Assembly (NCBI GenBank): GCA_964231105.1
Contig: CAXRJI010000034.1
Span: 30,235 to 94,234 of the forward strand
Reading direction: 5' to 3'
Source of the DNA: Porticoccaceae bacterium
GTDB lineage: Bacteria; Pseudomonadota; Gammaproteobacteria; Pseudomonadales; Porticoccaceae
Length of the DNA stretch: 64,000 nt
Part shown: in pieces, positions 53,003-61,871 of the stretch
How positions within the stretch are numbered: position 1 is the stretch's first letter
Layout of the letters: each line of letters opens with the position of its first letter
Translations under genes and position numbers: made by a program
The notes under the pieces: generated by a model
Databases searched by the model: none
Told to the model about the DNA's origin: nothing
Seen by the model: the letters and a program-made list of their open reading frames with translations, nothing else

Positions 53003-53095
53003 AAATTAGGATCCAATTATCGAGGCGTCAGTATAATTGTTTGAGTGTCATCCTCCAATACCGCTATACTTACGCCTTTGCCGAGGTAGGGTATT

Positions 53096-56026: not shown

Positions 56027-58438
56027 TTATCTTGATCTTTTCTTTTTGGCTTTTTTGCGTCTAGTAGGGGATTTTCCCGGCGCAACTTTTTTACCCCTAG
56101 CGCTACCTCGGACGCCTTTAGGTTTTGTTTTTGCTTTGCCTCCCTTTGTACTCTCCCTAGGCTTTTTAACTTTGGCTGCCCTACTCTTTGGATCCTTGGG
56201 GTCGGTTTTTTCTACTAATTCAAAATCAATCTTTCGCTCTTCGAGGTTTACACGCGCCACCTTCACTAACAAACGTTGGCCCAATCTGTAAATGCGGCCA
56301 GTGCGCTCTCCAACCATTCGCTGCTGAGAAGCTTCATGGTAGTAATAATCCTTGGGAAGACCAGTTACATGAATCAGCCCCTCGACACGCAACTCATCCA
56401 ACATCACAAAGAGACCAAACCCCGTAACCGCACTGACAACACCTAGATATTCCTCCCCCACTCTATCCATTAGATATTCACACTTAAGCCAGTTAACAAC
56501 GTCTCTTGTTGCCTCATCAGCTCGGCGCTCAGTCAATGATAGATGTTGACCAATCTCTCCCAATGCGGGTAGCTGATAGGGATATATAGAGTCTTTTTTA
56601 TCAACCTTGTTAACCTTAGCGCGTTTAATATGAGCTATTTTTTTCTTACTTCTAATTAGACTGCGTATGGCTCTGTGGGCAAGTAAATCAGAGTAGCGAC
56701 GAATAGGTGAGGTGAAGTGTGTATAGGACTCAAATGCCAAACCAAAATGCCCTAAATTTTCTGGCTGATAAACAGCCTGACTCATTGATCGCAATAGAAC
56801 TGACTGAATGATATTGGCGTCTTCTCTTTTTTGCGTGGCCCTAAGCACTTGTTGATAGTGCGCAGGTTCTGGATCATCTCCGCCTCCCAAGGCTATACCA
56901 AGCTCACCCAAAAATTCTCTTACAGAAGTTAAACGCTCCTCACTTGGCCCCTCATGCACCCTGTAGAGCCCAGGTAATTTATAGTGATCAAAGAACCTAG
57001 CACAGCACTGGTTAGCACATAACATACACTCTTCAATAAGACGGTGTGCATCATTTCTTTCAACAGGAATTATTTGATCAATTTTTCGCTGAGCATCAAA
57101 TAGGATGCGTGTTTCTTGACTGTCAAACTCTATAGCACCTCGACCGGCTCGACGCTTTTGCAATTGTTGTGAAAGCGCCTGAAGGGCATCAACTTGTGGA
57201 GTTATATGGGCAAATTGCTTTCTGATGCCAGAATTATTTGCCTTAGATGTTTCTGCTATGATCTGGGCTACTTGAGTATAGGTCATGCGAGCATGGGAGT
57301 GCATGATAGCCTCATAAAACTGAAAATGACCAATCTCTCCGCTGTCACTAATTTGCATTTCACAGACCATACAAAAACGGTCCTCTTGGGGATTCAGCGA
57401 GCAAAGTCCATTGGAGAGTTTTTCTGGCAACATTGGCACTACATGATTGGGAAAATATACGGAATTACCACGTGCACTCGCTTCTTTGTCTAGTGGAGAG
57501 TCAACATTGACATAGTGAGACACATCAGCAATAGCAACAATCAGTGTCCAGCCACCTTTTGATTGCGGCTCGCAATAGACAGCATCATCAAAATCTCTGG
57601 CGTCCTCGCCATCAATTGTTATAAGAGGCACCGACCTTAAATCAATGCGATAATCTGTTGCCTTGACCTCGGTACTTATACCTTCAGTTTGAGATTTGAC
57701 CTCATCGGACCAGACAAAGGGAATCGCGTAGTTGCGAATGGCTACATCAATTTCTATACCGGGCTCTAGGTGATCACCAAGCACCTCTGTTATGCGACCC
57801 ACAGGTAAGTTGTTTCGTGTAGGTGGCTCGAGAATATCCACCACCACAATTTGACCGGGATCAACTGAACTGATGGCTTCTCCGGAAATCACAATATCTT
57901 GACTGATACGGGGGTTGTCAGGTCTGACAAAGTTAATACCACTTTCGCGAAAATAACGTCCTACCAATTGTGAAGTGTTTCGCTCAACAACGTCTACTAA
58001 CGTACCCTCGGGGCGACCGCGGCGATCCCAACCGGTAATGCGAACCAAAACAATATCACCATCAAAAACTCGTCTCATTTGAGCACTGGAAAGGTAGATA
58101 TCATCTCCATTCGATCCCAACGGAGACACAAAACCGTAACCTTCGGAATGACCAATCACACGACCCTTTACTAAATTAAGTCTATCTAAAGTGCCATATC
58201 CTCCTTTACGATTACTTGCCAACTGACCATCCCTTTCCATAGCTATAAGACGACGTCTCATTGCTTCAATCCGTTGGTCGTCATGCAAATCTAGGCCAAC
58301 ACAAATCTCTTTGTGAGTCAGGGGACCGACACTTTGCTCAAGATAGTCAAGAATAAATTCCCGACTGGGAACAGGATTTTCATATCGAGTTGCTTCGTTA
58401 TCAGAGAATGAATCTTTGAAATGTTTGGATTTGCTCAT
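56027..58438 (-). CDS. rnr: Ribonuclease R
   Basis: Y.NP.PSRE HTH, CSD GH..GYGF, RNB TIDGEDARDFDDA, HFTSPIRRY.DL, S1 domain, basic C-terminal tail. Confidence 0.97.
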   Translation of the reverse strand: MSKSKHFKDSFSDNEATRYENPVPSREFILDYLEQSVGPLTHKEICVGLDLHDDQRIEAMRRRLIAMERDGQLASNRKGGYGTLDRLNLVKGRVIGHSEGYGFVSPLGSNGDDIYLSSAQMRRVFDGDIVLVRITGWDRRGRPEGTLVDVVERNTSQLVGRYFRESGINFVRPDNPRISQDIVISGEAISSVDPGQIVVVDILEPPTRNNLPVGRITEVLGDHLEPGIEIDVAIRNYAIPFVWSDEVKSQTEGISTEVKATDYRIDLRSVPLITIDGEDARDFDDAVYCEPQSKGGWTLIVAIADVSHYVNVDSPLDKEASARGNSVYFPNHVVPMLPEKLSNGLCSLNPQEDRFCMVCEMQISDSGEIGHFQFYEAIMHSHARMTYTQVAQIIAETSKANNSGIRKQFAHITPQVDALQALSQQLQKRRAGRGAIEFDSQETRILFDAQRKIDQIIPVERNDAHRLIEECMLCANQCCARFFDHYKLPGLYRVHEGPSEERLTSVREFLGELGIALGGGDDPEPAHYQQVLRATQKREDANIIQSVLLRSMSQAVYQPENLGHFGLAFESYTHFTSPIRRYSDLLAHRAIRSLIRSKKKIAHIKRAKVNKVDKKDSIYPYQLPALGEIGQHLSLTERRADEATRDVVNWLKCEYLMDRVGEEYLGVVSAVTGFGLFVMLDELRVEGLIHVTGLPKDYYYHEASQQRMVGERTGRIYRLGQRLLVKVARVNLEERKIDFELVEKTDPKDPKSRAAKVKKPRESTKGGKAKTKPKGVRGSARGKKVAPGKSPTRRKKAKKKRSR

Positions 58439-58555
58439 TAATACCCAACCGGTTTTTTAACAGTCTATGATGGATTAACCTATGAGAAAAGGAATTATTT
58501 TTATATGTAGTGGTGTTTTACAAATAGTGGTGGTTGCGCAAAAAGGATGACGTAT

Positions 58556-58581
58556 AAAAAAGCCTCGCTTACGCGAGGCTT
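58556..58581 (-). terminator. Intrinsic terminator (minus strand)
   Basis: Minus strand AAGCCTCGC-GTAA-GCGAGGCTT followed by a T run. Confidence 0.88.
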
Positions 58582-58592
58582 AAATGAGGAGG

Positions 58593-58781
58593 GTACAAAA
58601 AGATCGACCAGAGCCATCCATGGCGCATAGCGACTACCTTGTCGCTCTAGTGAAATGGAGGGCTCTTATGTTAATACTTGAATGACCGAGGTGTTTCTCA
58701 AGTCTAGCTTAGAACTACCATTTCTTTACTAGTTAAGATCCTTTTGAAAGCTTCCTACTTTCAGGTCGATCTTGGGTGTAC
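58593..58781 (-). ncRNA. Unannotated structured element: candidate Csr/Rsm-type sRNA or MITE/REP-like repeat
   Basis: Closing stem AAGATCGACC/GGTCGATCTT (58600-58609 with 58764-58773). Internal hairpins TGAAAG-TAGGAAG-CTTTCA, GCCA-TGGA-TGGC, AGCGAC-AAGGTA-GTCGCT and ACTTGA...TCAAGT; terminator directly downstream. Confidence 0.45.
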
Positions 58782-58795
58782 TTTAACGAAGTCTA

Positions 58796-58813
58796 TGTAA
58801 GAAAAAAATTACA
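58796..58813. promoter_or_regulatory. GacA/UvrY-box-like palindrome
   Basis: TGTAAG-AAAAAA-ATTACA, 11/12 match to TGTAAG-N6-CTTACA. Confidence 0.5.
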
Positions 58814-58849
58814 CTGACGCATTAATCCAAAAGTATTAGTTGTCAGATT

Positions 58850-61087
58850 TTACTGACTAAAGATGGCAGACTTCTCGATATGCTTACGAATATCATTCAA
58901 CTTTTTTTGTGTTTGTTTGGTATCTAAACGCTTTTGTTGCTCACTTAAGTCGACGACCAAACTTCTTAATTCCGACATACCGTAGAGACCTGAGAGCCCC
59001 AATAAATCATGGATAATTTCTCTCACATCATTTTTATCACTTTGAAGTGATGACTCTAGTCGATCTAGGTTATCTATAAGCGCCTTTTTTAATTCCTGCT
59101 TGGGAAGCACATTACCCAGTAGACCACCACTGGATAATTGGGTGGCAGAGGGTTTTCGATTGATGGCATCTAATATTGCATAAATCAACTGTAATTCATC
59201 AATGGGCTTCAAAAGCACCTTAATAGCTCCAGCTGCAATCATTTTTTGTTGCTCTGATTCCATAATATCTGCAGTTAAACCGATAATTGGCGGGCTATCT
59301 TTGCTGTTCTTAACAATGGTCTCTGAAGCAACAATACCGTCAATCTCTGGCATGTGCATATCCATTAACACCACATCAACCTCAGGATTTTTAGCCATAT
59401 CAATAGCCTCGCGCCCTGTTTGTGAAATGGCACAGGAAGCTCCATAGCCACTGAGTAATTTAAGCAACAGCTCCTGATTAAATGGATTGTCTTCTGCAAC
59501 TAAAATTGATACGCCAGACAGAACCTCTTGTGGTGAAGGGAAGTGATCCTTTATCCGCTCTAGAGTGGGTACTGTGTCGGGTTCAGCGAATTGACAAGTA
59601 AAGGTAAAGGTGGAGCCCACATCGACCTTACTACTGACACTTATTTCACCCCCCATAGCCTTTACTAAACTTTTTGATATTGAAAGTCCCAAACCGCTAC
59701 CGCCAAATCGACGACTAATAGAACTGTCTTCTTGGGTAAAGGCATGAAACAGCATGTCGATTTTCTCTTTGGCAATTCCTTTGCCAGTATCGGTAACAGA
59801 GAACTCTAACTTTAGTGACTTATCTTTTTCGCCTATAAACTTTATATTGGTTCGAACACCACCTTTTTCAGTGAACTTGATCGCATTACTAAATAAATTT
59901 GTAAGTACCTGTGCCAGACGCGCGGCATCACCGCTGACATACTCAGGGACATCCTCTTCTATGGTAACTTCATATGTCAGGCCCTTATCGCTTGCCTGCC
60001 TTGAGAAAACGGTTGTGGTGTCGTTAATCAATGACACCAAATTGAAGGTTTTATTATTGAGGGTAAAGCCACGCACATTGGCTTTTGAAAAATCGAGAAT
60101 ATCATCAATCACTGTGAGCAGTACGTCTGAGCACCTATAAATCATTCGTATATGTTTGCGACGCTCGGACTCATCTGTTTCCTTTGAGAGCAAATCTGTA
60201 AAACCCATCACCGCTGTAAGCGGCGTGCGAAGTTCATGGCTCATGCGCGCCAAAAACTGATCTTTGGTCTCCATCGCCTCTTCCAAATCTACTAATGTTA
60301 CCTGTAGCTGTGAGGTGGCGCGCTCAATCTCACTTTCCATACGTACTTTAGATTCGCGTACATTAGTAGCTAAGCTATTAATGCCTAGGACTAGCTTATC
60401 CAGCTCATAAAGTCCCGTTTGATCGGCCACAGATTCAAGATTTCCACCTTCCATCTCTTCAACAACTTGAGTCAGTGACTGCAGTGGGCGAGAGATATAA
60501 CGGCCGATTCTAACTGACAACCAAAAGGCTACTAGCAGTGCCAACAGGATAACGCCGAGCGTTGCCAAAATCATATAGGCACGCTTTTCTTTAAGATATT
60601 TATCCGTAATCTGCAGTAATACCCATCCTATGGGCTGGGGCTGAGGATCAAAAATATTCTCCTCTTTTTGAGATACAGTGTGATCAATAACATCAGAAAA
60701 AAAATACCAATTGTTATCTAAGTAGAACGGTGAACCATTATTAAAATCGATAGGCAACTGGGTTATATCGGTATCAAAATTACCCATTCGGACTAATTCA
60801 CCCTTTTGATAACTGGCAAAAAGTACACCTGTTACGCTTGGTGCCTCAAGTGCGGTGTCGCCCAATATTTTTAGCATCTCTTGATCGCCGGCACTCAGAG
60901 GGGATTCTGCGTAGGATGCTGTCTGAGCAACAGCCGTTTTGCCTCTTTCAGTGAGGTTATGCTGCAACTCTGAGGACTGAGTTGAAATCATGTAATAACC
61001 CAAAGCAATACTGAGTAAGCTTAGGGGTACCAAACTGATAAGGAGCAGTTTTTGATGAATACTGTTTGGCGCATTTATTGATTTCAT
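58850..61087 (-). CDS. GacS/BarA-like hybrid sensor histidine kinase (TM-periplasmic-TM, HAMP, HisKA, HATPase, REC, probable HPt)
   Basis: N-terminus with the GacS pattern (KLLLISLVP..L....LGYY......ELQ..L.ERG); FLARMSHELRTPL, NLFSNAIKFT, DTGKGI, GGSGLGL, VVLMDMHMP..DG; HPt-like IIHDLLG; ATG 61087 preferred. Confidence 0.82.
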   Translation of the reverse strand: MKSINAPNSIHQKLLLISLVPLSLLSIALGYYMISTQSSELQHNLTERGKTAVAQTASYAESPLSAGDQEMLKILGDTALEAPSVTGVLFASYQKGELVRMGNFDTDITQLPIDFNNGSPFYLDNNWYFFSDVIDHTVSQKEENIFDPQPQPIGWVLLQITDKYLKEKRAYMILATLGVILLALLVAFWLSVRIGRYISRPLQSLTQVVEEMEGGNLESVADQTGLYELDKLVLGINSLATNVRESKVRMESEIERATSQLQVTLVDLEEAMETKDQFLARMSHELRTPLTAVMGFTDLLSKETDESERRKHIRMIYRCSDVLLTVIDDILDFSKANVRGFTLNNKTFNLVSLINDTTTVFSRQASDKGLTYEVTIEEDVPEYVSGDAARLAQVLTNLFSNAIKFTEKGGVRTNIKFIGEKDKSLKLEFSVTDTGKGIAKEKIDMLFHAFTQEDSSISRRFGGSGLGLSISKSLVKAMGGEISVSSKVDVGSTFTFTCQFAEPDTVPTLERIKDHFPSPQEVLSGVSILVAEDNPFNQELLLKLLSGYGASCAISQTGREAIDMAKNPEVDVVLMDMHMPEIDGIVASETIVKNSKDSPPIIGLTADIMESEQQKMIAAGAIKVLLKPIDELQLIYAILDAINRKPSATQLSSGGLLGNVLPKQELKKALIDNLDRLESSLQSDKNDVREIIHDLLGLSGLYGMSELRSLVVDLSEQQKRLDTKQTQKKLNDIRKHIEKSAIFSQ

Positions 61088-61214
61088 AACGTCATCAATT
61101 CCTTTTTCAACACGATGGCTGAGTCTATTCCAATCTTTTACCACTCCAAGCTAGCCCAAAAGGTTTGTTATGGCTATTTGAATCCAGAAATCCCTTTTGT
61201 ACTGAAATCAAACT

Positions 61215-61871
61215 TTACGAATTTAACAATCCTAGTTTTTGACCTAATATGCCAGCCTGTGTCCGATTAGCCAACCCAAGGGCACGCAACATCGCACTGA
61301 CATGAACCTTCACGGTATTTTCAGAAAGATCTAACTCACGCGCAATATGCTTATTTGAGCATCCACGGCTTATACAACGCAAAATATCCATCTGACGTTC
61401 AGTGATCAATTCAGAAATAATTTCGATATTAACCCCCGAATCCACCTCATCTATCACCTTAGCTACTTCTGGCATTGACTCAATAAGATACTTTGGTACG
61501 TATTGCTCACCATCAATAGCCTTAAGAATTGCCTCAAATAGGGACTCTTTGGGCGCTGACTTAGTCACAAAGCCAGTTACGCCAAGTTCCAGACATTTCC
61601 TTATATGGGTTGCATTTTCTGACGCGGAGAGAACGACTAGTGGTAGATCAGGATAACGCTCTCGAAGAAGACTAATAAAATTAAAGCCTCCTGAGCCACC
61701 AGGCATAAACAAATCCAGAATCATCAGATCGAACTTATGATCTGATAGGATGGAAAGGGCCTCATCACAATTTACTGTGGATTTAACTTCCAATTCGTCA
61801 AATTCTTCACTTAAGGTTGCCTTTAGACCCTCACAGACGAAAGCATGATCATCAACAATTAGTATGTTCAT
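61215..61871 (-). CDS. NarL/LuxR-family response regulator
   Basis: ILIVDDH, ILDLFMPG (phospho-Asp), GFVTK, TERQ.DIL....G.SNK.IAREL.LSE.TVKVHVS. Confidence 0.92.
   Translation of the reverse strand: MNILIVDDHAFVCEGLKATLSEEFDELEVKSTVNCDEALSILSDHKFDLMILDLFMPGGSGGFNFISLLRERYPDLPLVVLSASENATHIRKCLELGVTGFVTKSAPKESLFEAILKAIDGEQYVPKYLIESMPEVAKVIDEVDSGVNIEIISELITERQMDILRCISRGCSNKHIARELDLSENTVKVHVSAMLRALGLANRTQAGILGQKLGLLNS

Follow-up and report, generated by a model that had tools for sequence, protein, structure and literature searches.

A structured small RNA gene upstream of rnr in a SAR92-clade bacterium represents an undescribed RNA family and a candidate decoy of CsrA/RsmA

The small RNAs (sRNAs) RsmX, RsmY and RsmZ of Pseudomonas and its relatives (Rfam RF02144, RF00195 and RF00166; clan CL00106) are intergenic and independently transcribed, measure 100-400 nucleotides (nt), end at an intrinsic terminator and carry A(N)GGA in the loops of several short hairpins with single-stranded GGA between them, and their promoters hold a conserved upstream inverted repeat of ~18-20 base pairs (bp). 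CsrB and CsrC of Enterobacteria and Vibrio (RF00018 and RF00084) have single short hairpins as repeat units and a UvrY/GacA box. Some sRNAs with few GGA, such as E. coli McaS, combine CsrA binding with a second function. We analysed a stretch of 64,000 nt from a Porticoccaceae bacterium (contig CAXRJI010000034.1, hereafter the window), in which an unannotated part at 58556-58781 had been flagged from its letters alone as a possible CsrA/RsmA-titrating sRNA. The flagged part proves to be a gene of its own for a small non-coding RNA, read from the minus strand (~58773-58556, ~218 nt) and with a multi-hairpin structure; the RNA family to which it belongs had not been described before, and no smaller member of it is known. 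By the relatives of its RNase R sequence, the organism, a marine bacterium, belongs to the SAR92 clade of Porticoccaceae.

The element shares with RsmX, RsmY and RsmZ all the traits listed above, and its host likewise falls broadly within their order (Pseudomonadales as defined by GTDB) and possesses a kinase of the GacS/BarA type. The element differs from these sRNAs in having no sequence or structure match to their Rfam models, a GGA density two to four times lower, 5' and 3' ends clamped by a long-range helix, a palindrome ACTAATAC-N4-GTATTAGT plus the box CGTCAGTGTAAT in place of TGTAAG-N6-CTTACA, and a gene that adjoins a sensor kinase gene. The relatives at loci L094, L098, L100, L127, L128 and L142 resemble CsrB and CsrC in having 600-780 nt, tandem modules and 15-21 A(N)GGA, whereas the window copy is short with 3 GGA; the family has neither sequence similarity to CsrB/CsrC nor a UvrY/GacA box, and its repeat units are multi-hairpin modules of ~115 nt. 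By analogy, the element would work like RsmX/Y/Z and, in the expanded relatives, like CsrB, as a new family of that kind. The window copy is also like McaS in its two accessible GGA and a separate single-stranded CU-rich stretch, and unlike it in showing no homology; a dual role in CsrA binding and mRNA base-pairing is conceivable for the window RNA.

The 226-nt flagged stretch is structured far beyond chance, unlike the GGA count of the window copy, with a fold energy of -81.8 kcal/mol against a shuffle mean of -52.1 (z = -6.1; none of 200 shuffles was as good). Its ends are joined by a closing helix of 10 bp between 58600-58609 (AAGATCGACC) and 58764-58773 (GGTCGATCTT), perfectly complementary, the arms of which reach 13 nt at 92%. 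From 5' to 3' its parts are as follows.

58556-58773, minus strand: predicted sRNA of ~218 nt, its start (~58773/58772) and its 3' end after the terminator U-run being placed from promoter and terminator
58764-58773, minus strand: closing helix, 5' arm AAGAUCGACC, from the fold and family covariation in 7 of 9 pairs
58745-58763, minus strand: hairpin A, UGAAAGU-AGGAA-GCUUUCA, with the loop GGA at 58755-58753 (probability of being unpaired, P, 0.98); AGGAAG is kept in the window-like subgroup
58739-58741, minus strand: single-stranded GGA in AAAAGGAUC (P 0.7-0.98), 14 nt past the loop GGA of hairpin A
58704-58732, minus strand: hairpin B with an AAUGGUA loop (GGU, not GGA), a single-sequence prediction only
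58676-58703, minus strand: hairpin C, ACUUGAG...UUCAAGU, a single-sequence prediction only
58629-58646, minus strand: hairpin E, GCGAC-AAGGUA-GUCGC, with GGU in the loop, homologue of the main-subgroup hairpin CGAC-UAGGAA-GUCG
58611-58626, minus strand: hairpin F region, GCGCC-AUGGAU-GGCUC, homologue of the main-subgroup GCGCC-AAGGAC-GGUGC
58600-58609, minus strand: closing helix, 3' arm GGUCGAUCUU, from the fold and family covariation
58582-58599, minus strand: single-stranded linker UUUUGUACCCUCCUCAUU, unpaired in the fold, with the CU-rich anti-Shine-Dalgarno-like CCCUCCUC (58593-58586)
58554-58581, minus strand: intrinsic terminator with a 9-bp G+C-rich stem, a 4-nt loop and UUUUUU (hairpin 58581-58560, then the T-run)

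Most of what the original prediction had described in this stretch was borne out once the features were read on the minus strand, namely the perfect closing helix, the GGU-variant loop (hairpin E), the unpaired GGA of AAGGATC, the terminator, for which homologues are present in relatives, and the lack of an open reading frame, as only mechanical frames of 33-38 amino acids overlap the element. GTAC is indeed found at both ends (58593-58596 and 58778-58781), the outer copy not being kept in relatives and probably lying upstream of the transcription start. Two GGA loops had been proposed. The AGGAA loop of hairpin A stands, whereas the supposed TGGA loop in hairpin F (58619-58617) is paired with an upstream UCCAU in both the minimum-energy fold and the ensemble (P 0.02-0.05) and is looped only in an alternative local fold. 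In the structural model, the loop GGA of hairpin A is the best candidate CsrA site, and the GGA at 58739-58741, whose homologous position holds GGA in all subgroups, is the candidate second half of a dual site.

The element is transcribed as a discrete RNA. Eight marine metatranscriptome runs, drawn from four or more studies, were compared with a 900-nt test stretch; each yielded a single contig, 156-179 nt long and lying within 58575-58765, and no contig of those runs lay on rnr or on the kinase gene in this stretch. As it was assembled in the metatranscriptomes of several studies where its neighbour genes were not, the element probably ranks high in abundance among the transcripts of these cells. 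The homologue at locus L085, a member of the main subgroup, was likewise found in many RNA runs. The contig of run X34 differs from the window at 58636, 58687 and 58690, the latter two falling in the loop of hairpin C with pairing unaffected. Runs X41-X44, labelled single-organism transcriptomes, contained SAR92-like contigs of 7.5-57 kb at a depth of 26-108 (compared with L085:3600-4800), which points to carried-over DNA or to the presence of a SAR92 bacterium in the culture.

Upstream of the element, three signals make up a predicted promoter.

58822-58839, minus strand: inverted repeat CTAATAC-N4-GGATTAA at ~-66 to -49, family consensus ACTAaTaC-TTTn-GTAtTAgT
58808-58819, minus strand: box CGTCAGTGTAAT at ~-46 to -35, its sole exact match in the window
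58780-58785, minus strand: predicted -10 hexamer TAAAGT, at the TAnnnT position relative to the box

The inverted repeat occurs once per locus, always upstream of the sRNA, with high information content across 65 unique upstream regions, and is a putative binding site of a dimeric activator. Of 17 independently found homologues, 11 have the box exactly and 6 with at most one mismatch; it would belong to the activator/-35 region, an upstream -10 hexamer (TGTAAT) being the less likely alternative. In all 17 homologues a TAnnnT hexamer follows exactly 22 nt after the box, the intervening spacer being variable. As this distance holds in every homologue and agrees with the contig ends, we set the start at ~58773, where the closing helix begins; the longest window contigs stop 8-11 nt short of it. 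In most family members, the closing helix begins 0-5 nt after the predicted start. A first reading that took TGTAAT as the -10 element, with a start near 58801, was replaced on the same grounds. The window also contains TGTAAT-N6-CTTACA at 58813-58796, a near-perfect Pseudomonas-type GacA box and the sole such match in the 64 kb. We dropped it as a GacA box, since the family conserves the left half (TGTAAT) alone and no relative has the right half; in the window it is either a chance match or a lineage-specific site. A second match to the box, CGTCAGTATAAT at 53026, was set aside as an ordinary promoter.

To describe the family we compared 151 loci, 80 from genomes and 71 from a promoter-pattern scan of metagenome contigs. 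The region upstream of rnr in the window aligned with 16 of the 80 genome loci, and altogether 66 unique SAR92/Porticoccaceae variants were obtained, one per locus and always upstream of rnr. The kinase gene lay upstream in all 16 sRNA-bearing genome loci compared, giving the order kinase, sRNA, rnr. No family member matched elsewhere in the window. The metagenome scan brought up no sequence nearly identical to the window copy, which thus forms its sub-lineage alone; it stands at the short end of the family (218 nt, 3 GGA) with the middle modules absent. In the HTCC2207 lineage (L012, L067) and in L018, the kinase gene and rnr are adjacent with a gap of ~105-270 nt and no sRNA, which has been either lost or moved. 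At L003 and L013 rplS occupies the site of the element, and a tRNA does so in Porticoccus and Cellvibrio. At L019:3800-3910 only a 3' remnant of ~100 nt is found directly after the rplS terminator (hairpins E and F, the 3' arm of the closing helix and the terminator), an sRNA gene cut short by rearrangement.

The consensus folds of both subgroups agree on the closing helix and the two 3' hairpins, and these were tested for covariation in an alignment of 40 sequences. Standard pairs formed in 94.7% of cells compared with 25-39% when the partners were slid, and 11 of 18 pairs had changed on both sides compared with 6.6 in shuffles (none of 500 shuffles reached the observed value). Changes on both sides affected seven of the nine pairs examined in the closing helix, 1 of 4 in the stem of hairpin E (helix 2; 95% of cells paired) and 3 of 5 in that of hairpin F (helix 3; 97% paired). 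As compensatory changes keep the pairing and not the sequence, what had looked like terminal inverted repeats is an RNA helix. In main-subgroup loci (e.g. L004, L011, L020, L086-L089) the 5' arm UUGACUCCUUG can pair either with the 3' arm or with CAGGGAGUUGA of hairpin D (10-12 bp); in the folding model, the latter conformer would possibly hide one AGGGA site.

The relatives hold their GGA motifs in a distinctive manner. The main subgroup has 6-8 GGA per core of ~225 nt, and expanded relatives have 15-21, nearly all of them A(N)GGA. Of the 41 unique main-subgroup sequences, 39 or more share GGA in each of six alignment columns, all of them unpaired, three in hairpin loops (ACAGGGAGU, CUAGGAAGU, CCAAGGACGG) and three in linkers (AAAGGGACU, AACAGGAUG, CAAAGGAAAG). 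Over the predicted folds of the 66 variants, GGA was the second most unpaired of the 64 trinucleotides, at 60% compared with 38% overall, 21% for GGU and 13% for GGC. The number of GGA ranges from 3 to 21 across the family and tracks length (r = 0.89), each further 100 nt adding ~3 GGA, whereas rnr coding sequence has 1.4 per 100 nt. At L094 four tandem modules extend ~780 nt downstream of the promoter and contain 21 GGA, every one of them part of an A(N)GGA motif, and L098 has two full tandem cores. Tandem duplication of GGA-bearing modules is also seen in L100, L125, L127, L128 and L142, and the RNAs of L101 and L135 instead carry 3' tails of short CAUGGAUGAAC repeats.

We consider it rather probable that the RNA is a decoy which sequesters CsrA/RsmA through exposed A(N)GGA motifs, and the relatives support this reading indirectly by conserved, exposed A(N)GGA and lineage-specific multiplication of modules. 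In the proposed mechanism, an activator binding in the region of the palindrome and CGTCAGTGTAAT box, above a weak -35 and the TAnnnT -10, would drive transcription, which would end at the intrinsic terminator and yield a stable RNA with its 5' and 3' ends clamped by the 10-bp helix. The exposed A(N)GGA sites would then capture CsrA/RsmA dimers and titrate them off mRNAs, so that CsrA control of the target mRNAs would be relieved. In the window copy, one CsrA dimer may bridge the AGGAA loop and the AAGGAU linker 14 nt downstream, a spacing within the usable range for CsrA dual-site binding. The adjacent BarA/GacS-like kinase would be the input upstream.

Five criteria for CsrA-regulating sRNAs have been proposed by Kulkarni et al. 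2006 (PMC1488887). Judged by these, the element has the intergenic location and the rho-independent terminator, and GGA in loops or free regions is found at the family level and weakly in the window copy (one loop and one free GGA, the third being paired). The upstream UvrY/GacA site TGTAAG-N6-CTTACA is lacking, with a different conserved inverted repeat of ~20 bp instead. For motif density, the remaining criterion, the values differ by group: the window copy is at the level of shuffles, the main subgroup lies 1.3-fold above them, and the expanded relatives hold 15-21 GGA.

Several results weigh against a CsrA decoy. The window copy has 3 GGA (2 of them AGGA) compared with 2.96 expected from dinucleotide shuffles (p = 0.63), as the original prediction had cautioned in calling the motifs few, and only two of them, one in a loop and one free, are predicted to be accessible. 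Main-subgroup members are only modestly enriched, with 6.1 GGA against 4.6 in shuffles (1.3-fold; median p 0.25). As the shuffle test for enrichment was not significant, the argument for CsrA rests on conservation, exposure and modular expansion. The density of one GGA per 37-73 nt is also well below the ~1 per 17 nt of RsmY, RsmZ and CsrB. The stems of both 3' hairpins still covary in the window copy and the subgroup closest to it, although GGA has gone from the loops (AAGGUA/AGGGUA; AUAGAU), which suggests that these hairpins have a role beyond the presentation of GGA.

The proteins and the promoter add to these points. A tblastn search with E. coli CsrA found no csrA either in the window or in fetched loci totalling 1.35 Mb, all from this one region, a large protein search for CsrA gave enterobacterial CsrA only, and csrA, barA and gacA go unmentioned in the supplements of a paper on SAR92 genome and transcriptome data. 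In favour of a decoy are the conserved BarA/GacS-like neighbour and the Cellvibrionales relatives Teredinibacter, Saccharophagus and Cellvibrio, from the same order, which encode GacS, GacA and CsrA (PMC2699552). The canonical GacA box TGTAAG-N6-CTTACA is not conserved, as no match within 1 mismatch occurs anywhere in the 80 related genome loci and no 2-mismatch match in them falls at the homologous site. A scan of the window with Rfam 15 at the gathering threshold returned one tRNA and no other match. In E-value mode, the window copy and a GGA-rich relative gave sub-threshold chance matches only, the best Rsm-type match being RsmY on the wrong strand at 19.5 bits against a gathering score of 57. 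The proposed comparison with Rfam thus yielded no Csr or Rsm model, and since no model matches, the element lies outside the CsrB, CsrC, RsmX, RsmY and PrrB_RsmZ families. Lastly, the transcript ends are predictions, and the strand was taken from the terminator and the promoter, the metatranscriptome contigs bearing no strand information. In the L085 lineage, two low-depth contigs overshoot the predicted start by 6 and 18 nt on the upstream side, so that read-through, or another start farther upstream that uses TGTAAT, may occur.

From the stop codon of the kinase gene (58850) to the start codon of rnr (58438) there is a gap of 411 nt with no conserved open reading frame. The element occupies part of it, 77 nt past the stop codon and 117 nt ahead of the start codon, on the same strand as both genes.

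58850-61144, minus strand: gene of a BarA/GacS-like hybrid sensor kinase, upstream neighbour of the sRNA
56027-58438, minus strand: rnr (RNase R), downstream neighbour

The top NCBIfam match of the kinase is BarA (E 1e-126, 424 bits, under the 890-bit equivalog cut-off), followed by TorS at 313 bits, and its Pfam domains are sCache_4, HAMP, HisKA, HATPase_c and REC. A regulatory link from this kinase to the sRNA, with the kinase as the upstream input, is plausible. Directly upstream of the kinase gene, a response regulator is encoded at 61215-61871 (minus strand), which is NarL/ErdR-like and not GacA (66 bits against a 280-bit cut-off). Among the loci compared, the adjacency of kinase and response regulator is confined to the window, L012, L018 and L067, and as it occurs in few lineages only, we do not claim this regulator as the activator of the sRNA. 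A tandem 17-nt direct repeat (TTTTATATGTAGTGGTG / TTTTACAAATAGTGGTG, 58499-58532), missing from the aligned relatives, separates the terminator of the sRNA from the promoter region of rnr. Upstream of rnr, the promoter-like boxes AATTCCTTTTCTCA and CATAGACT (58462-58496, minus strand) are kept in the SAR92-clade Porticoccaceae loci examined, including those that have no sRNA, and are probably the rnr promoter.

Other explanations were weighed against the CsrA decoy. A variant of it, which we hold to be possible but doubtful, is that in the window-like lineages a CsrA sponge has been remodelled to a dual-function or purely base-pairing regulator, and that the family is driven not by GacA but by another regulator through the new 20-bp palindrome and CGTCAGTGTAAT box. 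It draws on the lost middle GGA modules, on GGA loops that have turned to GGU or AGA with their stems covarying, and on a CU-rich stretch fixed before the terminator.

The same stretch bears on a rather unlikely reading, namely a trans-acting base-pairing sRNA, possibly Hfq-dependent, in which CCCUCCUC would occlude ribosome-binding sites, the multi-hairpin body would serve stability or protein binding, and CsrA binding could coexist. The motif CCCUCCUC is unpaired in the predicted fold, ACUCCCUCUUU is in the same place in all 10 window-like variants, and some main-subgroup members have CCCUCUU. An A/U-rich stretch followed by a U-tailed terminator is the usual 3' module of Hfq-binding sRNAs, and the loss of loop GGA from the two 3' hairpins in exactly these lineages fits a functional shift. 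However, most main-subgroup members, in which the 3' tail is long and varies, do not have the motif, and its conservation weighs little because the window-like subgroup is very similar overall. Base-pairing also leaves the modular multiplication of GGA in other lineages unexplained.

We also judge it unlikely that the element is a structured RNA of another class, with another protein partner or role and with GGA incidental or read by a different factor. This would suit the unremarkable number of GGA in the window copy, its weak enrichment in the main subgroup, the covarying hairpins E and F that are kept even where their loops have no GGA, the lack of an Rfam match and a promoter motif unlike the GacA box. 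On the other hand, GGA is selectively exposed compared with other G-rich triplets, the six GGA positions are nearly invariant and unpaired, and the expansions add A(N)GGA units specifically; exposed, conserved and multiplied GGA are hallmarks of CsrA decoys (PMC1488887).

A cis-acting part of a neighbour mRNA, either the 3' untranslated region of the kinase or an rnr leader or attenuator, is suggested by the common strand and the gaps of 77 and 117 nt and is nevertheless improbable and largely refuted. The element has its own conserved promoter and terminator, rnr has its own promoter-like boxes past that terminator, also in genomes that have no element, the metatranscriptome contigs cover the element and neither neighbour, and L012, L018 and L067 have the kinase gene and rnr adjacent with no such element between them. 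The mobile or repetitive element of the miniature inverted-repeat transposable (MITE) or repetitive extragenic palindromic (REP) type that had been offered as the alternative, with terminal inverted repeats of 10-13 nt at both ends mimicking a closing helix, is scarcely credible and was rejected, since there is one copy in the window and one per locus at an always syntenic site, the arms covary by compensatory substitution and do not stay fixed in sequence, and a dedicated promoter, a terminator and a discrete transcript are present; a dispersed repeat is thus ruled out as far as the 64 kb and the 151 loci show, and the single syntenic copy, the conserved promoter and the compensatory base changes therefore identify an sRNA gene. 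Of the outcomes that the original prediction had named as refuting it, two were examined, many dispersed copies and the lack of a discrete transcript, and within this scope both came out in its favour.

SAR92 bacteria are abundant coastal oligotrophs that are active in the turnover of carbon and dimethylsulfoniopropionate. To our knowledge, almost nothing is known about the regulation of gene expression in this clade, and in the literature we found no paper tying SAR92 to CsrA or to small RNAs of its own. The family could enter the RNA family databases, which would allow its annotation in marine genomes and metatranscriptomes. If the element is a CsrA decoy, it would provide a handle on a global switch of carbon metabolism and physiology in a clade of the uncultured majority, and its new promoter motif could be used to find the regulator and the regulon. 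The series from 3 to 21 GGA among close relatives would then be a natural one in which the evolution of sponge capacity may be followed.

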